A stretch of DNA of 64,000 nucleotides from Octopus vulgaris. Taxonomy: Eukaryota. The notes under the pieces were generated by a model, which was given only the letters and a program-made list of their open reading frames with translations, was not told the DNA's origin and ran no database searches. This document shows positions 792 through 63,231 of this stretch, piece after piece. Numbering within the stretch: the first letter of the stretch is position 1; each line of letters begins with the position of its first letter. Location: positions 68,386,001-68,450,000 of the forward strand of contig OX597827.1 in NCBI GenBank assembly GCA_951406725.2, in the 5' to 3' direction. The position numbers and the translations under genes were made by a program.

Positions 792-1380
792 AAGGCGGCG
801 AGCTGGCAGAAACGTTAGCACGCCGGGCGAAATGCGTAGCCGTATTTCGTCTGCCGTTACGTTCTGAGTTCAAATTCCGCCGAGGTCGACTTTGCCTTTC
901 ATCCTTTCGGCGTCGATTAAATAAGTACCAATTACGCACTGGGGTCGATATAATCGACTTAATCCGTTTGTTTGTCCTCTCTGTGTGTAGCCCCTTGTGG
1001 GTAATAAAGAAATGGGTATTTCTTCTGTCGTTACGTTCTGAGTTCAAATTCGCCGAGGTCGACTATGCCTTTCATCTTTTCGGGTTCGATTAAATAAGTA
1101 CCAGTTACGCACTGGGGTCGATGTAATCGACTTAATCCGTGTGTCTGTCCTTGTTTGTCCCCTCTGTGTTTAGCCCCTTGTGGGCAGTAAAGAAATAGGT
1201 ATTTCGTCTGTCGTTACGTTCTCAGTTCAAATTCCGCGGATGTCGATTTTGCCTTTCATCCTTTCGGGGTCGATAAATAAGTACCAGTTTCGCACTGGAG
1301 TCGATGTAATCGACTTAATCCGTTTGTCTGTCCTTGTTTGTCCCCTTTATGTTTAGCCCCTTGTGGGCAATAAAGAAATA
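792..1380 (+). mobile_element. tRNA-derived SINE family A, head-to-tail trimer
   Basis: Head aaggcggcgagctggcagaaacgttag...gagttcaaattcc (A/B-box like). A ~182-bp body repeats three times. Flanked by the 15-bp direct repeat tatactgctgccaat (775-789, 1381-1395). Confidence 0.85.
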
Positions 1381-1460
1381 TATACTGCTGCCAATTACAA
1401 TGAATAGCAATGCCTGTAATACTAAATTGATCTCTGTTATTTTTTTTTTCATCTCTGCAG

Positions 1461-1757
1461 GGGCACACCAAAACTGCGACATTGATTTCGACGGAAGCGG
1501 AGGGGACATTGCGCATTCTTGGCACACGGGTAATATGCACTTTGATGACGACGAAAACTTCAAGGCGATTTACTCCCCATCTGTTGAGGGAATCTACCTC
1601 TTGCGAGTGGCTGTGCATGAAATTGGTCACGTGCTCGGCCTAAACCACACCGAAAAGGATCACTCGGTTATGTATGCAATTTACAATCAAGATAGCAGCG
1701 TTGATAGTGAATTCGAATTGGGATGGGACGATCGGAAAGATGTTCAGAAAATATACG
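1461..1757 (+). CDS. MMP21: MMP21-like matrix metalloproteinase, catalytic-domain exon (internal exon; 5' exons lie upstream of the window)
   Basis: Acceptor tctctgcag|1461, donor 1757|gtacgt, phase 1/1. Encodes ...FDGSGGDIAHSWHTGNMHFDDDENF...LLRVAVHEIGHVLGLNH...SVMY...FELGWDDRKDVQKIYG: metzincin HExxHxxGxxH zinc site plus Met-turn. Confidence 0.93.
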
Positions 1758-1793
1758 GTACGTTCTTTTATCTCATTTTACAGCATTTTATTT

Positions 1794-1838
<45 letters not shown>

Positions 1839-1848
1839 TATACATACA

Positions 1849-2189
<341 letters not shown>

Positions 2190-2231
2190 AGAAAATACGC
2201 ATGCTTACATAGTTTTAATATAATTTTTAAT

Positions 2232-2266
2232 ATATCGACCGGTTTCGCTATCGCTATTCATGATAT
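2232..2266 (-). ncRNA. Minimal type I hammerhead ribozyme-like motif (A3-U8 variant) inside a TA-flanked inverted repeat (2183-2337)
   Basis: Reverse complement reads atatc-ATGAATA-gc gata gc-GAAA-ccgg-TC-gatat: 5-bp stem I, 2-bp stem II, palindromic stem III, GUC site. Confidence 0.55.
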
Positions 2267-2341
2267 GTTTAGCGAAACCGGTCGATATATTAAAAATTAT
2301 ATTAAAACTATGTAAGTGTGCGTATTTTCTTTTTTAAATTT

Positions 2342-2390
<49 letters not shown>

Positions 2391-2812
2391 CGCGTCATAG
2401 GAATTTAGAAACTTCGAACAAGCGCGAAATATTTTTTTTTAAACAGTGATACTCAACGCAGGCAAAGCTTTAAAAAAAAGTAGCGCATAAATATTGGGTA
2501 AAAAGCCCTTTTGATAGAAAAATCGGAGGCTATAAGTTTTAGCATAGAACTTGTTACACGATTTCTTATTTGTCATATCTAACCCATAAATCCAAAGATT
2601 TTATTTGAGCTCGTAAATAAGCAATTGTGTATTATCAGCGTATTTTCAAGGGTGATAAAGCAACTTCCTTTTTTCAACCTTTCATCATTAATAAAAAGTA
2701 ACAAAATAGAATAAATTTTTTTAAAAAAAGATGCAAAGGAGAAATTTTGAATAATAACGAAAAACAAAACATTATCTTATTTTTGCTTGATTATTATTTT
2801 TTTTTTTTGCAG

Positions 2813-3067
2813 GTGTTTGTAGAGGTGCCTTCAATACAGTGTTCGATTGGGTTCGGAGACGACCAGATAATCGATTTATTTTCAATACCTACTTCTTCAG
2901 AGGTAACCGATACTGGATGTATGAGAATCATGCGAATCGAACACGATACGGGGACCCGCTCATTATTTCACGTGAGTGGAAAGGTGTGCCAAGCGATATT
3001 GATGCATATGTACACATCTGGTTCTACAACCATCCCGGAATTGTCGACGTCACCTATTTCTTTAAAG
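2813..3067 (+). CDS. MMP21: MMP21-like, first hemopexin-domain exon
   Basis: Polypyrimidine tract + tgcag|2813, donor 3067|gtatgt, frame-compatible with the previous exon. Encodes (G)VCRGAFNTVFDWVRR...TYFFRGNRYWMYENHANRTRYGDPL...IDAYVHIW...YFFKG. The FDW, YEN.NNRTRYGDP and DA.VHIW motifs and the absent hinge match vertebrate MMP21 as I recall it. Confidence 0.93.
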
Positions 3068-3510
3068 GTATGTATTAATTAAGAACCCTAAGTTAAATGT
3101 TTTTGAGGTGACCGGTAAGAAAGGTAACTTACTCCAACCACATAACTAAAAATATAATAAGATGAAACAAGTACTTTATTCGTTGAAATTGTTGTTCTTT
3201 AGGTTTGACCGCAAGTCTTCTTTGATCAAGTATATTTATAATCAAACATGTTCGGAATTTGGCCCTCCATTCCGTCTGTTGCTCTCGTTTTCAAGGCGTG
3301 TATGGCAATTTCAGTACATCAGGTTAACGGAAACGTCGGAAAGTAAGGATATATTTCTCCTGCCCACAGCAATAAACCCGCTTACCCAAGCTACCTATTT
3401 AAAGCCAAGTATGACTTCAGCTTAGCCGCATAGACCTGAGACAAAATGTGGTCCTTTTATTCGCTTGTTCGTCCTTTATATTCCCAACTGCATATATGTA
3501 TATCGCAAAA

Positions 3511-3823
3511 GCGCAATGGCCCAGTGGCTAGGGTAGCGGACTCGCGGTCGGAGGATCGCGGTTTCGATTCCCAGACCGGGCGTTGTGTGTGTTTATTGAG
3601 CGAAAACACCTAAAGCTCCACGAGCCTACCTGGTAGGGGTTAGTGGTGACTCCTGTTGTACTCTTTCACCCCAACTTTCTCTCGCTCTTTCTTCCTGTTT
3701 CTCGAGTAACGCTGCGATGGACTGGCGTCCCGACCAGCTGGGGGGAACACATACGCCACAGAAACCGGGAAACCGGGGCCCATGAGCCTGGCCAAGCTTG
3801 AAAAGGGCGCATAAATAAATAAA
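3511..3823 (+). mobile_element. tRNA-derived SINE, head C + tail i
   Basis: gcgcaatggcccagtgg...ggtttcgattccc head and gcgatggactggcgtccc...ataaataaat tail; near-identical copy at 49156-49465. Confidence 0.8.
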
Positions 3824-3981
3824 TAATAATATATGTATATCAAAGCCCAGCATATCTGTTATGCAGACACAACAATAACAGTAAAATAAAGGAAACCTGT
3901 AGACGAACTGATAAAACAGTCATATAAATTAAGAAACATACTAAAGACAAAATGGTTATTAAAACGCCACATTTTGTACAG

Positions 3982-4384
3982 TTTACTCTTTTACTCTTTT
4001 ACTTGTTTCAGTCATTTGACTGCGGCCATGCTGGAGCACCACCTTTAGTCGAGCAAATCAACCCCGGGACTTATTCGTTGTAAGCCCAGTACTTATTCTA
4101 TCAGTCTCTTTTGCTGAACCGCTAAGTGACGGGGGCGTAAACACACCAGCATCGGTTATCAAGCAATGCTAGGGGGACAAACACAGACACACAAACACAC
4201 ACACATACACATATATATATATATACATATATACGACAGGCTTCTTTCAGTTTCCGTCTACCAAATCCACTCACAAGGCATTGGTCGGCCCGGGGCTATA
4301 GCAGAAGACACTTGCCCAAGATGCCACGCAGTGGGATTGTGCCGGAACCATGTGGCTGGTAAGCAAGATACTTACCACACAGCC
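3982..4384 (-). mobile_element. tRNA/CORE-like SINE family B with internal (TA)n(TG)n tract
   Basis: Reverse complement of the family-B consensus (gtggctgtgtggtaag...ccttgggcaagtgtctt...tgactgaaacaagtaaaagag) present in more than 9 copies in this window. Confidence 0.85.
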
Positions 4385-4544
4385 AATTTTTGAGTTCTTG
4401 TTAGTTTTGCGAATTCTTTATACGCTTTCTTGTGATATTACGTACATGAAGCCCATCATTCAAAGAGAGAGAGGAAAAACTTCTATCAATCATAATTGAA
4501 GCCGCTACAAGAGAGAAATATAAATGTGATAGACTTGGTGGATA

Positions 4545-4929
4545 TCTTTATATATAAAAGTCAAGTTGTGTGTCTGTCTCCTACGATTTAGATTCCTAAC
4601 TGCGGTGCAGTTTAACCAAAACCGGGTATCTTATAGTCGTGATTCATATCGAGCCCTTCTGGGTATTAGCGCGCGCGTCTACGATGATTCTACGATTTAA
4701 AAAAAATTTACCATCATTTTTTTCCATTTTAATGCATTTTTTCGCTATTATATAAGGGAAGTAACACTCTAAAAATGTCTACGATGAGTCAACGATTTTT
4801 TTTTAAAATTACCATCATTTTCTTTTCCATTTTTAATGCATTTTTATGCTATTTTTTGGCTATAACTCTAAAAATGCTTATATAGTTATTTCCCTTACAA
4901 ACCCGAGCAACGCCGGGCGATACTGCTAG
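4545..4929 (+). mobile_element. Non-autonomous Helitron
   Basis: A|TC-tttatatataaaa 5' end; subterminal hairpin cccgagcaacgccggg then CTAG|T; no TSD. Confidence 0.75.
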
Positions 4930-5146
4930 TGTATTATATTATGATTACAGAATCGTCAAAAGGAGCAGCCAAAACATTAAACTACCAACAGGTGATTCAT
5001 AAGTTCAAATAAACTTCAGATATTTTATGACATCTTATTAAACGAGCTACAATAATACTTAATTATAAGATGTTGGACTTCTGGGAAATGAAATTACCTT
5101 TTACAGACTAGAGTCTTCTCAAACGCTTAGTTTCCTAATAGCTTAA

Positions 5147-5545
5147 TCTCTCTATATAAAGCTGAAGTTGTCTGTGTATGGCAGGTTTGGTACCCTTCAA
5201 CTAACACTATCTTCTCCGAGACCCTGCGGCGCAAGTTGACCAAAATTGAGAGTATGATAGACGAAGGCTTGCTCTTCATTCCGTAGAAGAAAAAATTCAA
5301 ATCGGACCATGTTAACACCAAAAATTATTTACATCAAATATATGCTTTTTTTCCTATGAAAATCCCTATTTTTTACGATTTTTTCACTGCTGTGTCGCCA
5401 TTTTTCGTTGTATTTCAACCAGATTAAATGTTCACTTAAAGAGAATAACAAGCTACATAATGCAACATTTTTTACTTTTCAAAAATTCCAATTCTAAAGG
5501 GTCGAAAAGAAAACAAACCCGAGCAACGCCGGGCGATACTGTTAG
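5147..5545 (+). mobile_element. Non-autonomous Helitron (second subfamily)
   Basis: A|TC 5' end, same 3' hairpin, TTAG|T end; full-length homologue at 23895-24286. Confidence 0.75.
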
Positions 5546-5614
5546 TGTTGTATAAACCAGTTTTGTGGTACCACAATGTTTCAATTAACTGACTCATCAT
5601 TTCCGTCTTTTCAG

Positions 5615-5790
5615 GTGAAAACTATTATATGTACGAAAGTATGGAGGCTAAAGTGCTTGACGGTTGGCCAAAGAAAATCTCGGAAGGTTTTGGTCCTAAA
5701 CCAAATGGCACTGATCGCATACCAAACAACGTGGACAGTGTCTTTTTTGACATGAGAGACAGCAACATATATTTCTTTAAAGATGACATG
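5615..5790 (+). CDS. MMP21: MMP21-like, hemopexin exon
   Basis: ttttcag|5615, donor 5790|gtaaat, phase 1 to 0. Encodes (G)ENYYMYESMEAKVLDGWPKKISEGFGPKPNGTDRIPNNVDSVFFDMRDSNIYFFKDDM (hemopexin PK.ISEGF and D..F...IYFFK motifs). Confidence 0.92.
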
Positions 5791-5928
5791 GTAAATATCA
5801 ACAAAATCATTTATACTTCATTCACTACAACCACTAGTAGTAGCAACATCAGTATAATTTTGACTACTACTGCTCCTGCTATAATCCTTTGCATCATGAT
5901 TATTATTATTATCATTATTATCATTGTT

Positions 5929-6142
5929 AAGGCGGCGAGCTGGCAGAAACGTTAGCGCACCGAGCCGTATTTCGTCTGCCGTTATGTTCTGAGTTCAAAT
6001 TCCGCCGAGGTCGACTTAGCCTTTCATCCTTTCGGGGTCGATATATTAAGTACCAGTGAAACATTGGATCGATGTAATCGACTAGACCCCCCCCCCACAC
6101 ACACACACACAATTTTAAGCATTGTGCTTATAGTAGAAAGGA
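5929..6142 (+). mobile_element. SINE family A, tail variant A2
   Basis: Family-A head and body ending ttgtgcttatagtagaaagga. Confidence 0.8.
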
Positions 6143-6522
6143 CCAGAAAGAACCATTACTATCGTTGTTGCTGTAACAGTCGTAGAAGTAGTTAAAGCCG
6201 TCATTACCATGAAACTCATTTAAACAGATCCCTAAACTCAAATGGTAAATGGAAACCGCGCTGTTCTATTTACATTCCTGCTTTTACTTCTGATCTTAGT
6301 TTTGTCTTGTTTTATGCCGTTTTTTGTTTGTTTATTTGTTAGTTTTTTTTTTCACTTTAAAACCCCGAAATATCTCAAGCCACGGTTCGTGTTTGTGAAA
6401 CTTTTCATGGCAGTCAACTTCCTTTCGGATATCCCATCCCTCACCACCCAGTTTCTCCAACACTACACAGCATCCATTTCATACAGCTATTTCCAGTAGC
6501 ACCACAGGCATTAGTCCAAAGT

Positions 6523-6642
6523 TTATATATATATATATATATATAAGCATGTATGTATGTATCTATGTATACGTAGATGCATACATATATATATATATAT
6601 ATATATATAGCATGTATGTATGTATCTATGTATACGTAGATG

Positions 6643-6679
<37 letters not shown>

Positions 6680-6711
6680 CATGTATGTATGTATCTATGT
6701 ATACGTAGATG

Positions 6712-6760
<49 letters not shown>

Positions 6761-6775
6761 ATGTATACGTAGATG

Positions 6776-6812
<37 letters not shown>

Positions 6813-6820
6813 AGTAGATG

Positions 6821-6856
<36 letters not shown>

Positions 6857-6900
6857 CATGTATGTATGTATCTATGTATACGTAGATGCATATATATATA
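6523..6900. repeat. Compound tandem repeat: (TA)n interleaved with a catgtatgtatgtatctatgtatacgtagatgcata unit
   Basis: Unit visible about 5 times with variable TA spacers. Confidence 0.85.
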
Positions 6901-6944
6901 TATACATGTATATGTTATGATATGTATACACTTAATATTTATGA

Positions 6945-6992
<48 letters not shown>

Positions 6993-7091
6993 CTCCTTAA
7001 AAACGTGTGTGTGTGTGTGTGTGTGATTATGTATATTTGTATGTAGGGGAATGTTTATGGGCACGAGTGTACGTGCGTGTGTATATGTGAG

Positions 7092-7124
<33 letters not shown>

Positions 7125-7602
7125 CATAAATATTTCTTAGATTATGTAAAATTCGGGTTATTTCCATTGTTGTTATTCGTTTTTAACCACCATCTACCAC
7201 AGGGGAGGCTATGTAAGAAATTTAATAGACGTCGTTTCAACAGTAAATAGCGTATCGTATTCAAGGCATTCTTTGAGAGTGTAGACTATTCTCTCAGGGC
7301 ATTCATTTGAAATTTCTAAATAGTTTTTTGTTTTGTTGTTTTGTTTTATTGTGTGTTTTCTGCTTCTTTTTATGCTTGTTCTTTTTGTGTGTGTGTGCGC
7401 GTGTGTGTGTTTTTCTTTTGCTTGAGACCATTGTGTTAAAAATAGTGTCAACCACAACCAGCCCCGCTCTCTCCTCGGCGACCTTCAATCCTCTGTCCTT
7501 AACTATACGTCTTCATCTAACATCTGATGTTACAGATCGACGGGATCCTTTGATAAACTCAAAGCACAACATTGATAGGCAGCGAGATGGACACAGATAT
7601 AT

Positions 7603-7996
7603 GTGGCTGTGTGGTAAGTAGCTTGCTAACCAACCACATGGTTCCGGGTTTAGTCCCACTGCGTGGCTGGCATCTTGGGCAAGTGTCTTCTGCTATAGCA
7701 CCGGGCCGACCAATGCCTTGTGAGTGGATTTGGTAGATGGAAACTGAAAGAAGCCTGTCGTATATATGTATATATATATATATATGTATGTGTGTGTCTG
7801 TGTTTGTCCCCCTAGCATTGCTTGACAACCGATGGTGGTATGTTTACGTCCCCGTCACTTAGCGGTTCGGCAAAAGAGACCGATAGAATAAGTACTGGAC
7901 TTACAAAAGAATAAGTCCCAGGGTCGATTTGCTCGACTAAAGGCGGTGCTCCAGCATGGCCGCAGTCAAATGACTGAAACAAGTAAAAGAGTAAAA
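7603..7996 (+). mobile_element. SINE family B
   Basis: Full head-microsatellite-tail structure; inverted relative to the copy at 3982-4384. Confidence 0.85.
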
Positions 7997-8003
7997 AAAA
8001 AGA

Positions 8004-8121
<118 letters not shown>

Positions 8122-8584
8122 AGAGACAGACAGAGACATTTTGTATAATTATGGTAGTTAAACAGAAAATTCCTTTAGGTTTTAATGTTTGGAGAAAGTT
8201 GCTTTCAAGAAGGCGAAACAACGCTAAACATTTTAGCAAAATATGAAACGGTGTTCTAATCATATTGGCTGGAGGTCGATTCTTGGTATTTCTCGAAAAT
8301 AATAGCAAAAGGGTTTAATTCTCGTAAATGTCATCCTAGGAAAGAAATGGTTAAATGGTTTCTGTAGGTGAAAAAAAAAGAGAGAGAGAGAGAGGAAAAA
8401 AATTAGTCTATGCTATCAGTATTTGTTCTTTATTTTATCGAACCCAGAATTATAAAAGGCAGTGTTGACTTCTGCGAGATTAGAACTCAGAATCTCGAGC
8501 ATCAAAACAAATGTCAAACAGCATTTTTTCCCCGATACTGTAACGCTTCTACTAATTAATTATCATAATTAATCCCTGTTGGTA

Positions 8585-9056
8585 AGGCAGTGAGCCGGCA
8601 GAGTCGTTAAGCACGCTTGACAATACGCTTAGCTGTATTTCACCCGTCGTTATGTTCCGAGTTCAAATTCCACCGAGGTCGACTTTGCTTTTCATCCTTA
8701 CGGAGTCGATAAAATACGTACCAGTTCAACTCTGGGGTCGATGTAATCGACTAGCCCCCACCCACCAAATTTCAGACCTTGTGCCTTTAGTAGAAAGGAT
8801 TATTATTATTATTATTATTATTATTATTGGCGAGCTGGCAGAACCGTTAGCATCCTGGGCGAAATGCGTAGCCGTATTTCGTCTGCCGTTACGTTCTGAG
8901 TTCAAATTCCGCCGAGGTCGACTTTGCCTTTCATCCTTTCGAAGTCGATAAATTAAGTACCAGTTACGTACTGGGTTCGATGTAATCGACTTATTTCATT
9001 TGTCTGTCCTTGTTTGTCCCTTCTATGTTTAGCCCCTTGTGGGTAATAAAGAAATA
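8585..9056 (+). mobile_element. Two adjacent SINE family A copies (A2 then A1) separated by (ATT)n
   Basis: Both carry gagttcaaattcc.ccgaggtcgactttgc...; different 3' tails. Confidence 0.8.
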
Positions 9057-9174
9057 TAATTATTATCATTATTATTATTATTATTATTATTAAAATTGCT
9101 GTTGTTCTTGTTAGTATTCTATATATATATGTGTGTAGAGAATAATATTTTGCTTTGGTTTCTCTCCTTCCTAG

Positions 9175-9507
9175 GTCTATGTTTACAATCCACGAGGAGA
9201 AGGTGCCCCTTCAAAGACCGGCTGCTGCGAGAGAATTAGCAAAATTACCGACGAATTTCCTGCTGCAAAAGGCGAGCGTCCACTCGAGGGGAATCTTGAT
9301 GCCGTTTACTATTCATACAAGAAACAATCAATGTATTTTCTGAAAGGCGAGGACGTTTGGAGGAACAGCAACTTCAGCCGGCGACAAAGTCCGCGAAAGA
9401 ACACGATTCGTTATGAGGGCAAATGGTACGACCATTGGTACGACATATGTGATGTGAAGTCGGACACGTCTGCTACTAGCGGCATGATCAACTATGCAGG
9501 CGATTGA
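9175..9507 (+). CDS. MMP21: MMP21-like, terminal coding exon (missed in this frame by the ORF track)
   Basis: tctctccttcctag|9175, phase 0. Translated by hand: [110 protein letters not shown], stop TGA 9505-9507. W.D.CDV closes the hemopexin disulfide. Confidence 0.92.
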
Positions 9508-18230: not shown

Positions 18231-18319
18231 TATTTAATTATCATTGAAATGGTATTAGAAAATCGTACATGTTTGGTCTTCCTTTAGGTCCATGTCCAAA
18301 ATCTAGGATACAGGTGATG

Positions 18320-18795
18320 ATATCCTTTACGGCAGCGAGTCATGGCCGATGTGGGTAGAAGATATTAAGCGACTAGTATCCATCGATCACCCCTGTCTAC
18401 GCCGCATCTTTCGTGTCCGATGGCATCATCACTTTGTCTCCAACAATTCGGTGCGACACCAGTGCAAAATCACCTTCCTAACGAGACGTTTGCGTTGGCT
18501 GGGTCATGACCTCCGTCGTCAACCAGGGGAATTCATCTACGAAGCAATTACCCCAGCTCCCCTTCAGGGTTGGCGAAAGCGATGTGGTGGACAACGAAAA
18601 ACTTGGCTAATGACGGTCAAGGCTGATCTGGAACCCAACCTAAGCCTCCATGTCTACGTCGTTCGATGCTGGAATAGGGAGTGGTTGGAGATCACGCGGT
18701 CGTTAGCCTCAAATCGCCAGGCCTGGACGGCGTTTGTAAGAGATGCAGCATTGAGGATGAATGGACCCAACTCAAACAACCCTGAGTGAATGCTG
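18320..18795 (+). mobile_element. RTE-clade LINE 3' fragment
   Basis: ILYGSESW...CLRRIFRVRW...VSN...RRLRWLGH.LR...GWRKR.GGQRKTW is typical of the RTE ORF C-terminus. Confidence 0.8.
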
Positions 18796-26810: not shown

Positions 26811-27060
26811 GCATATGGCGGAGTGATTAAGAACGCATGCTACTAACCCCAAGATTTCGATTTCTATTCCAGGCAGTGACCTGAATAATAATAAGAATAA
26901 GAAGAATAATAATATCGAAAAATACCTTAGGAATTAGAACCTAGGTTCGAAATTTCCCCAAGACACCTGATGAAGGCTGGAGGGTATATCAGCTGAAACG
27001 TTGTGTTAACAACAAACAAGATGAGGACAAATATCCGTCAAATGTAAATAATGTAAATAA
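26811..27060 (+). mobile_element. Family E: tRNA-like head + (AAT)n + hammerhead-bearing Penelope-like tail
   Basis: gcatatggcggagtg...ctactaacccc...ttccaggcagtgacc head; gacac-CTGATGA-a-ggctg..cagct-GAAA-cg-TT-gtgtt at 26962-27007. Confidence 0.8.
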
Positions 27061-47238: not shown

Positions 47239-48132
47239 AACGACAACAAAACCAACCTAACTAGTTGTATATTGTATGTGTTGGATACAGACCTATGTAT
47301 AAATTAAAATTTGGATTCACAAGTCTTAAGAATCTGCGGTATCTTTCATTGCAATCATATATTCTCCTCTTAATAGCAGGCGTCTGACTGAGCTGCTAAC
47401 AGCGCAATACAGCTCATATAACCAGAACAACATCTCTGTATTTACATGAAACAGATGCACAGACTTCTTTAAAAGAATGGCCTCAAACTGATTGCCGAAG
47501 ACTGACTCACCGAGACACCAAAATCACTGGACTGCCTGTTTATGCCTTGTTTCTTTTCTTTCTTTTGTATCCCACAGCTATAATTGCGTCGAACTCCTAC
47601 CACTTAGAAAACCACATTCAGTCAAGCCCTTTGTATGCCTAACCTATCATTTTTACACCATCCCTACTGTGACAGTCTACTCAATCTCGCCCCCTACACA
47701 AAACTATAGTCTTCTGAAATATCTTCGAAACCCACGCGTTATTCTTCTTGTCAACCAACGGCAAACAGAAGCTAATACTGAACGCCCACCTCATAACCAC
47801 ACCTAAGAGATCCTGTAGCCGTCATTAGACATATATTGCTCCACTTATGACTAAAAGCAATTTTTTTTTCGTTTTTGGAAAAATTTATGATACAACATTG
47901 ATAAACCTTGCTCTCAAGTACTTCCTACGACACAATGCTAGAATATCGAAAGCTTGAATAGGATGTTTCTCGTGCACGTAGGCAAGAATTCAGTCATAGA
48001 TATTCGGGGGAATCTTTGTCTCACGACCATACTGGTTCCTTTTCTCTCGTTCTTCAACCATTCCTACAACAACCTTAGCTCCAACACCCACTAACTTCTA
48101 CCTACCACACCTAATTAAATGCAGTCAATACT

Positions 48133-48343
48133 ATATTTACATTATTTACATTTGACGATATTTGTCCGCATCCTGTTTATTGTTAGCACAACGTTTCGGC
48201 TGATATACCCTCCTGCCTTCATCAGATTATTATTATTATTATTATCATTATTATTATTATTCAGGTCACTGCCTGGAATCGAACACTGAATCTTGGGGTT
48301 AGTAGCTCGCGCTCTTAACCACTATGCCATATGTCCGTGGGCA

Positions 48344-48374
<31 letters not shown>

Positions 48375-48588
48375 AAGAAGAAGAAGAAGAAGAAGAAGAA
48401 GAAGAAACAACATCGAAAAATACCTTAGAAATGAGAACCCAGGTTCGAAATTTCCCCAAGACACCTGATGAAGGCTGGAGAGTATATCAGCCGAAACGTT
48501 GTGTTAACAACAAACAAGGACAAATATCCGTCAATTGTAAATAATGTAAATAATGTACATAATTCCTCATCTCTTAAATATAGAACTG
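48133..48588. mobile_element. Family E composite: inverted copy (-) + (GAA)n + direct tail (+) with an intact hammerhead at 48460-48505
   Basis: gacac-CTGATGA-a-ggctg gagagtatat cagcc-GAAA-cg-TT-gtgtt. Flanked by gcagtcaatact (48121-48132) and gcaatcaatact (48588-48599). Confidence 0.8.
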
Positions 48589-49465: not shown

Positions 49466-50296
49466 TTATTTTTATTAGTTCAAATTCCACCGAGGTCGAC
49501 TTTAAATCTTGGCTCACGGTCGTGAGGCCATGAGTTCGATTCCTGGCAGCGCGTGGCGTCCTTGCGCAAGTCACTTTATTTCACTTTGTTCCACGCCACT
49601 CGGCTGACAAATTTCAATTGTACCTGTAATTCAAAGGGCCAGCCTTCTCACGTTCTGTGCCACGCTGAATCTCCCAGAGAATTGCGTTTAGAGCACACAT
49701 GTCAGTGAAGTGCTCCACTAAAATTGCACGTTAATTTAACGAGCAGGGTGTTTCATTGATTTGGATCGACTGGAACCCTCGTCGTAACCGATGGAGTGCC
49801 AATAATAAAGATAGGAAACAAAATAACCAATCACAGAGAACGGCGTAGTGTAAGTAAGAAATAGAAGAGAGAAAAAGAGAGATAAGTGAGAGGGAGAGTG
49901 ACAAAAAGAGTGAGAAAGAGAAGAGTTAGGGAGAGAGGCACTTCATGTGAGACAGCTTTAGCAAGAGGCTACGTATAGAAGGGAATCATTAGTCTTTGTA
50001 AAAGATGTGCTAAAATCTAGGTTGATTGACGTTCAAATTTTCCTGTTCGTAGGATAAAGCTGCGTGACTAATAGAGCTATATGCGGCCAGTTTCAGATTT
50101 CAACACGTTCGTCAGATCTATGAAGCGAACCGACGACTCGCCATGCGCAAAAGGGAATCGTACCTACTAGAACGAGACACGAATATATTTACATTATATA
50201 TATATATGTATATATAAAGATATAAAGAGAGAAAGAGAGAGATAAGATATCCCTCCAAACTCACTTTTGTGTGTGTGTGTGTATATATACTCTATA

Positions 50297-50582
50297 CTCT
50301 TTTACTTGTTTCAGTCATTTTACTGTGACCATGCTGGAGCACTGCCTTTTAGTCGAGCAAATCGACACATCACCATCGGTTGTCAAGCGATGTTGGAGGA
50401 CAAACACATACATATATACGACGGGCTTCTTTCAGTTTCCGTCTACCAAATCCACTCACAAGGCTTTGGTCGGCCCGATGTTATTGTAGAAGACACTTGT
50501 CCAATGTGCCACGCAGTAGGACTGAACTCGGAACCATGTGGTTCGTTAGCAAGCTGCTTACCACACAGCCACTCCTACGCCT
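50297..50582 (-). mobile_element. SINE family B (internally deleted)
   Basis: Reverse copy. Confidence 0.8.
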
Positions 50583-50725
50583 ATACGTATATATATAAAA
50601 TTTAAAATATTGCATTTATAAATCTCTCAGCACCGCAATAAAATGATGCTTTGTTGCCAACTTAATGTGGCAGTCCCAGGAAAGGGAAGAATGTTACTGC
50701 TATTTAGCCCCAGGAAACACCGTTT

Positions 50726-50766
50726 CCAGACTGATGAAGAGCAATGACTCTGAAACTAGTCTCTGG
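50726..50766 (+). ncRNA. Minimal type I hammerhead ribozyme motif (Penelope-type)
   Basis: ccaga-CTGATGA-agag caatga ctct-GAAA-ctag-TC-tctgg: intact core, 5-bp stem I, 4-bp stem II, palindromic stem III, GUC site. Confidence 0.8.
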
Positions 50767-51094
50767 CTGCTGGCTTTGCTGGGTGGATGTGCTTATCTCC
50801 CCTGTTCGAAAACTTATGGACACACAATGGTTATGTCACATAGCCAGCTGGAAACGATGTCTCTTGGAGATAAATAGCAGTAAAATTCTTCCCTTTCCTG
50901 GGACTGCCACATTAAGTTGATAACAAGCCATCACTTTATCGCGGTGCTACTGTATAAGTCCCTCTGAGAGATTTAGAAATGCCATATTTCTAATTTTGTA
51001 GATCAGTGAATTTATTTCACTTGAAATTCTTTTTCAAGTGAAAAAAAATTTTGAAAAGGCGAATACGTATCGACAGCTAGCAAGCCAAGCTACA

Positions 51095-51135
51095 CCAGAC
51101 TGATGAGGAGCTATGACTCTGAAATTCGTCTCTGG
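51095..51135 (+). ncRNA. Second tandem copy of the hammerhead motif
   Basis: ccaga-CTGATGA-ggag ctatga ctct-GAAA-ttcg-TC-tctgg; the following ~60 bp also match the first copy. Confidence 0.72.
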
Positions 51136-51403
51136 AAGCTGGCTTTGCTGAGTGGAGGTGCTTATCTCCTCTGTTTGAAAACTTAAGGACACAGAACCAC
51201 CACCTAATATATATCTTAGAATGTTTGGAGATGATGTACAGTTATTATATATTAGAAGAAATGAGGTACTCTCTGGTGGAGTTGTCAACTCCACTAGAGT
51301 GGACGAAAGCGCTAATACATGATATATGATTTATAAAAACATGTAACATACTAATAAATATCTGTAAATATAAAACCATCCAGATTTCTGAGTACCTCAT
51401 TTC

Positions 51404-51443
<40 letters not shown>

Positions 51444-51607
51444 TTTATTATATAGAAGGAGTTCTACAGGACTAGAACTGTTGAAGATTTCTCTTGATGA
51501 AACAGTTCTAGTCCTGTAGAAGCTCCTTCTATATAATAAATTAATTTTACTCTGCTATGTATTGAGTACCTTATTTACTGTGGTTAACCCCGAATCAACC
51601 CGGGACC

Positions 51608-54712: not shown

Positions 54713-54745
54713 TTTAACGTTTCGAGCAAAGCTCTTCTTCAGAAA
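54713..54745 (-). ncRNA. Minimal hammerhead-like motif
   Basis: ttt-CTGAAGA-a-gagc ttt gctc-GAAA-cg-TT-aaa; related to 21069-21104. Confidence 0.5.
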
Positions 54746-60858: not shown

Positions 60859-61242
60859 ACTCCCTCTCTCCGCTCTCCCCCCTTTCTTTCCCTGTCTTTC
60901 ATCCTCTAAGAAAACAAACATCATTAAAATATGTATAACGCAAAGAAAAGAAAGATTTAATAACCGTTGCATCAATTATGTTAATACGGACTTAACTATT
61001 GTTTTGTGATGAGGATGGCGTGTGTGAATCATTTATTCTCTAAGCAACTGTAAGTTCTTCTCTCAATTTACTCGCAGACTTATTCACGATTCCCTCACCC
61101 CTATTTTGACTTGTGTAGCAAAATTAAAAATTCATTGATTACGTCATAATATGGCTTTAAAATTTATAGACTTATCTCTTCTACTTTTCGAAAAGAAAAA
61201 CAAAACTATTTTGCATTTTCTAATAGTTGTTTTGTTATATTT

Positions 61243-62848
61243 TGTTGCCCTGCTCTCCTGTTGTTGGCCTGCTCTCCTGTTGCCCTTCTCTCCAGTTGGC
61301 CTGCTCTCCACCTGGCCTGATCTCCAGATGGCCTGCTCTCCAGCTGGCCTGCCCTGCAGCTGGCCTGCTCTCCAGCTGGCCTGCTCTCCAGCTGACCTGC
61401 TATCCAGCTGGCCTGCCCTCCAGTTGGCCTGCTCTCCAGCTGGCCTGCCCTCAAGTTGGCCTGCTCTCCAGCTGGCCTGCCCTCCAGCCGGCCTGCTCTC
61501 CAGTTGGGCTGCTCTCCATTTGTCATACTCTCCAGTTGACCTGCTCTCCAGATGGCCTGCTCTCCAGTTCGGCTGCTCTCCCTTTGACTTGCTCTCCAGC
61601 TGGCCCGCTCTCCAGCTTGCCAGACCTCCAGTCGGCCTGCTCTCCATTTGATTGCTATGGACTGCTCCAGTTGTCCTGCTTTCCAGCTGGCCTGCTCTCC
61701 AGTTGGCCTGCTCTCCATTTGATTGCTCTCCAGCTGACTAGCGTCCAGCTGACCTGCTCTCCAGCTGACCTGCTCTCCAGCCGGCCTGCTCTCTAGTTGG
61801 CCAGCCCTCCAGTTGGCCTGATCTCCAGCTTACCTGATCTCCAGCTGGCTTGCTACCCAGTTGGCCTGGCCTCCATTTGAAATGCTCTCCAGCTGGCCAA
61901 CCCTCCAGTTGGCCTGCTCTCCAGCTGGCCTGTCCTCCAGTTGACCTGCTCTACAGTTTCGCTTGCTATCCAGTTGGCTTGCTCTCCTTTTGGCCAGCCC
62001 TCCAGTTGGCCTGCTCCCCAGCTGGCCTACTCTCCAGCTGACCTGCTCTCCAGTTGTACTGCTCTCCAGTTTCGCTTGCTATCCAGTTAGCTTGCTCTCC
62101 TCTTGGCTTGCTCACTTGTTGGCCTGATCTCCAGCAGGCCTGCTCTCCAGTTGGTCTCCTCCCCAGCTGGCCTGTTCTCCAGCTGGCCTGCTCTCCAGTT
62201 GTCCTGCACTCCATTTTCGCTTGCTATCCAGTAGGCTTGCTCTCCTTTTGGCTAGGCTTCCAGTTAGCCTGGTCTACTCTCCAGCTGGCCTGCTCTCCAG
62301 TTGTACTGCTCTCCAGTTTCGCTTGCTATCCAGTTGGCTTGCTCTCCTGCTCTTTAGTTGTCCTGCTCTCCAGTTGGCTTGCTCTCCTTTTTACGTGCTC
62401 TCCAGTTGGTCTGCTCTCCTTTTGAACTGCTCTCCAGTTGGCTTGCTCTCCTTTTGGCCTGCTCTTATTTGGCTTGCTCTCCTTTTGACTTGCTCCCGAG
62501 TTTGCCTGTTCTTATTTGGCTTGCTCTCCTTTTGACTTGCTCCCCAGTTTTCCTGCTCTCCATTAGCTTACTCTCCTTTTAGCTTGTTCTCCTTTTAATT
62601 CGCTTTCCAGTTGGCCCGCTCTCCTTTTAGCTTGCTCTCCTTTTGACTTGATCTCCTTTTCGCCTGCTCTCCAGTTTGCTTGCTGTCGTTTTGGCTTGCT
62701 CTCCTTCTGGCTTGCTCTCCAGTTGGTCTGCTCTCCAGCTGGCCTTCTCTCCATTTGGCTTGCTCTCCAGTTGTCCTGTCCTCCATTTTGGCTTGCTCTC
62801 CTTTTTAGCTTGCTCTCCTTTTGATTGCTCTCCAGTTGGTCTGCTCTA
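61243..62848. repeat. GC-rich 16-bp minisatellite, ~100 units, consensus CTCCAGCTGGCCTGCT
   Basis: Direct periodicity; drifts to ctccttttggcttgct distally. Confidence 0.92.
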
Positions 62849-63231
62849 CATACATACATATATACATTTTTATGTGTATTGTACATTTGCTTATAGATAC
62901 ATATACATACATACTTGCATATATAACTGGCGCTACGTCGGTTATGACGACGGAGGGGTTCCAGTTGATCCCATCAATGGAACATCCCTCTCGTGAAATT
63001 AATGTGCAAGTGGCAGACTATTCTACAGACACGTACGACCTTAACGTAGTTCTCAGGGACAAGGCTGGCCCTTTCAAATATAGATACTACTTTTTTCTTG
63101 CCGGGTGAATGGAATGGAGCAACCTGAAATACAGGGTCATGCTCACGGACACAACGCGTCGCCGGGAATTGAACTCACGACTTTGAAATCGTAAGCCGAA
63201 TGCCCTAACCAACTAAGCCACGAGCTTTAAC

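Follow-up and report, generated by a model that had tools for sequence, protein, structure and literature searches.

Introduction

The closest described systems are the non-LTR retrozymes of metazoans, among which those of the mussel Mytilus galloprovincialis are repeats of 350-390 bp with a GC content below 50%, which are highly self-paired and accumulate as circles (PMC7229834). The same source describes retrozyme circles as abundant in coral, mussel and axolotl, and a 2026 preprint (10.64898/2026.07.22.740005) reports that one of nine predicted frog retrozyme dimers was cleaved. As for the ribozymes, the canonical type I and the minimal hammerhead architectures are defined in PMC4209133, where the minimal hammerhead of Penelope-like elements (PLEs) is described to lack loop 3 and the helix III insert, and to possess a long helix II and an extra base between positions 9 and 10.1. 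The pair G10.1-C11.1 is highly conserved according to that source, yet the U.U at this place in the axolotl hammerhead HHR_Amex2 (PMC7229834) shows that it is dispensable.

Penelope enzymes have been proposed to mobilize retrozymes (PMC7229834, PMC7761336 and the 2026 preprint), a case that has so far rested on co-occurrence and pLTR homology. Traits of Penelope insertions include an inverted 5' copy beside a partial tandem and (TA)n targets (PMC8557442), and the Penelope protein is described to cut and extend both strands at AT-rich DNA and to start reverse transcription internally (PMC11167929). In Octopus vulgaris, 31 Penelope-like families have been recently active, as given in a recent repeat annotation whose main text contains neither “hammerhead” nor “retrozyme” (PMC13282606). 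No cephalopod retrozyme was found in the literature searched, which comprised titles, beginnings of abstracts and passages of mainly open-access papers, the supplements of which might list octopus motifs.

Here we describe a locus in a 64-kb stretch of O. vulgaris DNA, hereafter the window, that is likely to be a dispersed insertion, by now decayed, from a family of non-LTR retrozymes in Octopus, moved by the mechanism proposed below. By its sequence the element belongs to an already known kind, the metazoan non-LTR retrozyme, and what appears to be new, by the literature searched, is the octopus family. If circles are made, this family would add an unannotated class of small circular RNAs to a much-studied genome, and its flipped end piece gives a hint as to which enzyme copies the element.

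Overall architecture of the locus

The locus is composed of one full unit, the start of a second and an inverted upstream fragment, i.e. 1.3 units plus an arm (Table 1). The direct repeat (50726-50826 versus 51095-51195) shows 12 mismatches over 101 positions, and the inverted pair (50591-50729 versus 50848-51003) shows 18 over 139 in addition to a 17-nt indel, the two inverted arms being 87% identical and separated by a spacer of 118 nt. The equal divergence of the direct and inverted pairs (12-13%) would fit a single event, and would also fit two family members. The arm points outward with its 3' end into TA-rich DNA, and its 5' end meets the forward unit head-to-head; a hairpin at 50830-50846 sits at the inversion junction. 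At the insert ends, the search for a target-site duplication gave nothing beyond 8 nt of TA repeat, and the 30-40 bp tail typical of Penelope-like elements was not identified at the locus. The unit is non-coding, with no Pfam match among the four overlapping ORFs scanned, and has a GC content of 40%. By blastn, the 64-kb window has no second copy of the unit, and TRF reports no tandem repeat for the 1.3 units. A candidate homology between the stretches upstream of hammerheads 1 and 2 was rejected, as its score of 11 was reached by 469 of 500 shuffles.

Table 1. Coordinates of the element, its parts and its immediate neighbours in the window
Feature	Position	Strand	Remarks
Full tandem unit, retrozyme-type monomer	50726..51094	+	369 nt; joins seen in contigs of other copies
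Hammerhead 1, type I	50726..50766	+	helix I of 5 bp, A10.1-U11.1, ACUAGU helix III; predicted cleavage after 50761
Hammerhead 2 in native context	51078..51150	+	G10.1.U11.1, predicted distal helix I; predicted cleavage after 51130
Central part of the native unit, serving as template for the arm	50848..51003	+	sequence comparison and contigs of other copies
Inverted partial unit copy	50591..50729	-	matches 50848-51003 without 17 nt
Inversion junction, 4-nt microhomology CCAG	50726..50729		present both in helix I (5' strand) and at the arm start
Start of second unit	51095..51195	+	101 nt; stops 65 nt past the cleavage site
Variable A/T-rich hairpin	51026..51069	+	shortened or swapped in other copies; lowest depth bins
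Predicted cut-to-cut RNA monomer	50762..51130	+	369 nt, 40% GC, 66% of bases paired when circular
Left neighbour, outside the element: SINE-like repeat, abundant, with a TA-rich end	50282..50585		8 or more additional copies elsewhere in the window
Right neighbour, first part of another repeat	51202..51245		summed depth 88,295-116,385 in X1 versus 545-579 in X13

A first, sequence-only reading had placed an inverted copy of the upstream region at about 50843-51000, between the two hammerheads, and regarded the whole as a pLTR-like inverted structure. The inverted copy is real, its boundaries being off by a few bases (Table 1), and the Penelope-like arrangement is real as well, but its polarity is the opposite: in contigs of other copies the middle segment forms part of the regular unit, which makes the upstream stretch the inverted one.

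Two canonical type I hammerheads

When a 5-bp helix I and a 4-bp helix II were required (strict settings), scanning the two strands of the whole window with a descriptor yielded exactly two hammerhead matches, with C3 at 50731 and 51100. Strict matches numbered zero in 100 dinucleotide shuffles, in which loose settings gave a mean of 0.01 loci. The core segments from C3 onward span 50731-50737 and 51100-51106, and the GUC cleavage triplets end at 50761 and 51130, 369 nt apart on the forward strand, which bears out the two complete, same-strand cores read earlier from the letters. Both hammerheads possess the canonical type I core (CUGANGA, GAAA, UH and helices I-III with the open end in helix I). 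In each, helix I is the 5-bp CCAGA:UCUGG, helix II has 4 bp and a 6-nt loop 2, and helix III has 2 bp and a 2-nt loop. The pair 10.1-11.1 is A-U in hammerhead 1 and G.U in hammerhead 2, so that both the stem I pairing and the A-U to G-U change in stem II noted in that reading were found again; neither hammerhead at this locus has the G10.1-C11.1 pair. The self-complementary ACUAGU helix III that had been pointed out in hammerhead 1 is indeed intact, whereas in hammerhead 2 this palindrome is broken by two changes, at 51125 and 51127. A distal helix I with an internal loop 1 is predicted for hammerhead 2 only, hammerhead 1 being without its native upstream partner strand.

Altogether, both ribozymes are predicted to be canonical type I hammerheads. 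The earlier description of them as minimal was wrong, because helix III is present, with 2 bp and a loop, helix II measures 4 bp and loop 2 measures 6 nt, in addition to the distal helix I predicted for copy 2. The Rfam search suggested as a check returned no hammerhead family at the gathering threshold, nor at E up to 10; this tells little, because the G10.1-C11.1 hammerheads of three control loci (L001-L003, see below) also escape Rfam at E up to 1.

A closed unit pieced together from other copies

Sequences aligned to 50586-51245 at 80% likeness came from four of the 24 listed sequencing runs, namely 2,948 contigs in X1 (organism A), 2,309 contigs in X13 (organism D) and, in the two RNA runs X23 and X24 of organism D, 618 of 12,895,792 and 566 of 11,974,664 reads. 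Only 124 (X1) and 103 (X13) contigs are 99% alike to the locus, most being 90-95% alike or less; the exact locus is apparently in none of the 24 listed runs, with a best DNA share of 0.29 and no RNA run having it. By these alignments the family is abundant and dispersed in many copies, depth sums not being treated as copy numbers.

Upstream of 50725, 48 (X1) and 42 (X13) contigs show copy-2-like sequence instead of the arm, and past 50729 the arm extends, in 49 and 63 contigs together with 155 and 81 RNA reads, into the reverse complement of about 50830-50847 rather than the hammerhead. Among 16 listed pieces of 5,519, at least six bridge 50848 with at least 31 nt per side and two (records 8 and 16) bridge 51095. 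Moreover, the link from 51028-51032 back to the hammerhead is made by seven X1 contigs, the shorter side being at least 34-57 letters in the best contig of each row. From these bridging links, the hammerhead, the downstream 100 nt, the middle and the pre-hammerhead stretch form a closed unit. The longest listed piece is 186 nt and shorter than the whole unit, so the closed loop is pieced from overlapping links, and the listed short contigs include no multimeric array. In place of 51026-51069 other copies have 25-40 letters, or skip from 50994 to 51076, and the read depth drops steeply after 51003. Units of about 310-345 nt are implied where the A/T hairpin is shorter, giving a putative family range of about 310-370 nt.

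At the two positions that break the palindrome of hammerhead 2, other copies mostly have C at 51125 (depth 1724/1991 and 386/466; RNA reads 23/29 and 14/14) and A at 51127 (depth 1855/1991 and 409/466; RNA reads 26/29 and 14/14). The palindromic helix III is the majority state in other copies and has been lost by copy 2 here. Many copies carry U at 10.1 (depth 70160/86200 and 25589/31860), which may weaken the ribozyme of the family. None of the 40 variant rows listed, beside which a further 168 exist, hits a core position.

The RNA reads are mostly less than 90% alike to the locus (484/618 and 448/566), and 94% continue into unlike sequence. Their mate orientations are about equal, and they show no piled starts or ends, which two cDNA libraries are unlikely to show in any case; they are compatible with passive read-through of other copies. 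At the loose ends at 50685-50690, 50947 and 50993, the RNA reads are dominated by one diverged variant of the unit whose alternative segments are consistent (agreement 0.68-0.89, up to 96 reads per place), and they include variants absent among the listed DNA rows, hinting at one expressed subfamily in organism D, perhaps a young one. Two short motifs of the neighbouring variants do not occur in the 64-kb window.

Predicted folding and activity of the present copy

Folded as a circle, the cut-to-cut monomer has a predicted energy of -102.5 kcal/mol, compared to a shuffle mean of -80.5 with a standard deviation of 5.4 (z -4.1; none of 60 shuffles as low), and the opposite strand gives a z of -2.0. 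Nearest-neighbour folding, which leaves out tertiary contacts, assigns helix I of hammerhead 1 a pair probability of 0.00 in any transcript with the full inverted arm, and its outer pairs a probability of 0.85 in the fragment 50700-50790. For hammerhead 2, helix I reaches 0.75-0.99 in most contexts. The price of a hammerhead-shaped fold would be 4.6 kcal/mol in copy 2 and 7-9 kcal/mol in copy 1 when the arm is included, and the predicted dimer helix between copy 1 and copy 2 is +1.0 kcal/mol, versus -4.8 kcal/mol for two intact palindromes.

These predictions divide the earlier proposal that the tandem hammerheads could excise a monomer or circle, as retrozymes do. The 369 nt indeed correspond to a family-level tandem unit with a highly self-paired predicted circle, but excision at this locus is doubtful, with helix I of copy 1 sequestered by the arm, helix III of copy 2 changed and the dimer helix unfavourable. 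Ribozyme activity at the locus is probably weak, and little circle would be expected because copy 1 is without a distal helix I and copy 2 without the helix III palindrome, which would make it a weak or silent source. We regard the locus as an aged, decayed copy that is probably inactive. Divergent RT-PCR, proposed earlier as a check for the circle, could by our inference not separate a circle from a tandem multimer transcript in the family.

Comparison with known retrozymes

Non-LTR retrozymes consist of head-to-tail units of 150-450 bp, each with a type I hammerhead, and the octopus unit of 369 nt agrees with this, the second unit being partial. They are furthermore non-coding, with GC below 50% and without LTR, PBS or PPT; the octopus unit has 40% GC and apparently none of these features. 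Their circular monomers are highly self-paired, which is here predicted from the folding energy given above. Retrozyme families further comprise many copies, multimeric arrays among them, and give rise to linear as well as circular monomer RNA; for the octopus family the contigs show many copies, and the RNA reads on the unit stem from diverged copies. The octopus unit most resembles the mussel family in description: both are non-coding head-to-tail units from a mollusc with one canonical type I hammerhead each, of similar length (369 versus 350-390 bp), with GC below 50% and a predicted circle that is highly self-paired. By contrast, the octopus locus has 1.3 units plus an inverted 5' piece, and its cleavage and circle are predictions.

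Similar to axolotl HHR_Amex2, the octopus hammerheads have a two-pair helix III. The U.U at the helix II base of HHR_Amex2 may also have a counterpart in the many octopus copies with U10.1, opposite the U11.1 of the window. Differences are the host, a cephalopod and not an amphibian, the 2-nt loop 3 in place of a tetraloop, and the A-U and G.U pairs of this locus.

Within the window, a minimal PLE-type hammerhead repeat of ~250 bp occurs in five copies, at 26967, 35281, 47101 and 48465 (+) and at 48225 (-), two of which (48129-48343, -, and 48344-48588, +) lie back to back. It likewise carries a type I core within a short dispersed repeat, but differs from the octopus unit in having no loop 3, an extra base before G10.1-C11.1 and a long helix II. 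This repeat is probably what the sequence-only reading called family E, and the claim that the locus is unrelated to it stands: alignment of the two gives a score of 21 against a shuffle mean of 20.3, with 78 of 200 shuffles scoring as high. At 54716-54742 (-) there is one more minimal hammerhead, standing alone and differing in sequence, which combines a 4-bp helix II with a 3-nt loop.

Possible Penelope signature and proposed mechanism

The locus displays the Penelope layout, a partial tandem accompanied by an inverted, 5'-truncated copy. As in the pLTRs of PLEs (PMC4209133, PMC8557442, PMC11167929), a type I hammerhead is combined with a partial tandem and a head-to-head inverted 5' copy, and the AT-rich target without a clear target-site duplication is a further likeness. 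Unlike PLEs, the octopus unit contains neither an RT/GIY-YIG ORF nor room for one, and its hammerhead is canonical. By these features it does not qualify as an autonomous PLE. Of the 235 filtered ORFs, the 138 scanned against Pfam, among them all from 34.3 kb onward, gave no match to an RT or GIY-YIG domain, and no partner Penelope element was identified.

Re-read in unit coordinates, at least five inversions occur among 27 listed of 139 joint rows, four of them head-to-head. In the head-to-head rows the arm starts at about 50836-50874, and each inversion row is a single X1 contig, whose depth resembles that of a single locus (63-83 versus 47-81 for other X1 pieces). In addition, 15 X13 contigs exit the unit into A/T-rich sequence near the outer end of the arm, and one X1 contig has the identical arm end followed by 36 additional native letters. 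The head-to-head inversions and A/T-rich exits are no more than suggestive of a Penelope signature: the tool chose which rows to list, junctions near 50729 are favoured by the reference itself, and the orthologue of the locus could be among the contigs.

We propose that tandem source loci would be transcribed and the hammerheads would cut, aided by dimer pairing of the ACUAGU palindrome, and that the monomers would be ligated into circles, by analogy to the retrozymes of coral, mussel and axolotl. As the shape of the locus suggests, a Penelope-type reverse transcriptase/GIY-YIG endonuclease would then nick AT-rich DNA and copy a more-than-unit template. If derived from one RNA, this template would be a circle or an uncut multimer, because the insert extends past both cleavage sites. 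A second, inverted cDNA would be joined through the 4-nt microhomology, and a later change of ~6% per copy would have damaged both ribozymes. Tentatively, we advance the fuller reading of an abundant and hitherto undescribed family of cephalopod retrozymes, the RNA of which would form circles and the scattered copies of which would bear a Penelope insertion signature (head-to-head 5' inversions, recurrent internal 3' ends at AT-rich targets and more-than-unit length). If the signature is read correctly, it would be direct structural evidence that Penelope enzymes mobilize animal retrozymes. The mobilizing enzyme of animal retrozymes is testable by counting inversion junctions and end positions of the family in an assembly.

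Alternative explanations

One rival explanation is that the locus is pLTR debris of an autonomous, protein-coding Penelope-like element, which would leave a partial tandem and an inverted copy and make no independent circular RNA. PLEs are typically laid out as a partial tandem plus an inverted 5' copy (PMC8557442), and frog retrozymes are reported to be homologous to pLTRs, 24 of 57 families matching known elements (21 of 22 PLEs; 2026 preprint). The ATG inside each core, as in a lizard PLE, and the steep fall of depth after 51003 also suit this explanation. We nevertheless consider it unlikely, since other copies close from 51028-51032 to the hammerhead within 25-40 letters and have no room for an ORF. 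The frames from the core ATGs stop after 47 and 27 codons, with an earlier stop via an A at 50817 that is the majority elsewhere (depth 4280/4600), and an ORF starting in the hammerhead core was discarded as not conserved across copies. Moreover, in metazoan PLEs the minimal form with its long helix II prevails (PMC4209133), which is also the form of the other family in the window but not of the present hammerheads.

The same structure could have originated at the DNA level, as a satellite-like dimer whose 5' end folded back at the CCAG/CTGG microhomology, in which case the inversion would be uninformative on Penelope. Such an origin is improbable in our view, although several points agree with it: the microhomology and the hairpin at the junction, the missing target-site duplication, the proposal of the 2026 preprint that tandems grow by unequal crossover, and the X1 contig with 36 extra native letters, by which the junction may owe its shape to a later deletion. 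Against it stand the single dispersed 1.3-unit copy in 64 kb, the outer arm end in TA-rich DNA, about where the 15 X13 contigs exit into A/T-rich sequence, and several independent-looking head-to-head junctions. A non-autonomous DNA transposon with terminal inverted repeats of ~140 bp (50591-50729 and 50848-51003) and a captured hammerhead fragment is very unlikely; the 87% identical arms around the spacer and the TA-rich left flank would suit it, but in other copies the arm sequence is embedded in the hammerhead unit, continuing into it at either end, and what precedes the hammerhead is not the arm. That the motifs match by chance, as the missing Rfam match might suggest, is hardly credible given that strict matches were absent from 100 shuffles, that the family majority restores the palindrome and that Rfam misses L001-L003 too.

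Surroundings and related observations

The repeat on the right of the element, common in organism A and rare in D, may have cut its right end. Next to it lie two small MITE-like elements in TA repeats: the one at 51246-51415 has a hairpin in its interior and terminal inverted repeats of 26 bp without a mismatch, and the other, at 51439-51545, is a near-palindrome of ~107 bp.

In a metagenome pattern search, the first pattern gave no match and the second gave three marine contigs, which were rejected as relatives because their likeness is the pattern-imposed core only. These three contigs, L001 (629-669), L002 (314-353 and 1041-1080) and L003 (765-804), carry related hammerheads within blocks 68-87% alike and have no Rfam match; L001 and L002 also have terminal repeats, the periods being 1021 and 727 nt. 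Apart from the core they are not related to the octopus unit, and they appear to represent a circular-RNA or retrozyme-like family of their own.

Pfam matches over the 138 scanned of 235 filtered ORFs comprise only metalloprotease and hemopexin exons below 10 kb, in addition to one sub-threshold repeat match. A 160-residue frame at 18307-18789 (+), which we take to resemble the C-terminal end of a LINE reverse transcriptase, has no Pfam match. At 61140-62970, degenerate tandem repeats give rise to open frames that are long and repetitive in either strand. An MMP21-like matrix metalloproteinase is represented by exons at 1319-9504 (+) that encode pieces of peptidase M10 and hemopexin, among which the exon at 1460-1759 is 98% identical to an MMP21-named protein of Octopus bimaculoides and 92% identical to that of Argonauta.
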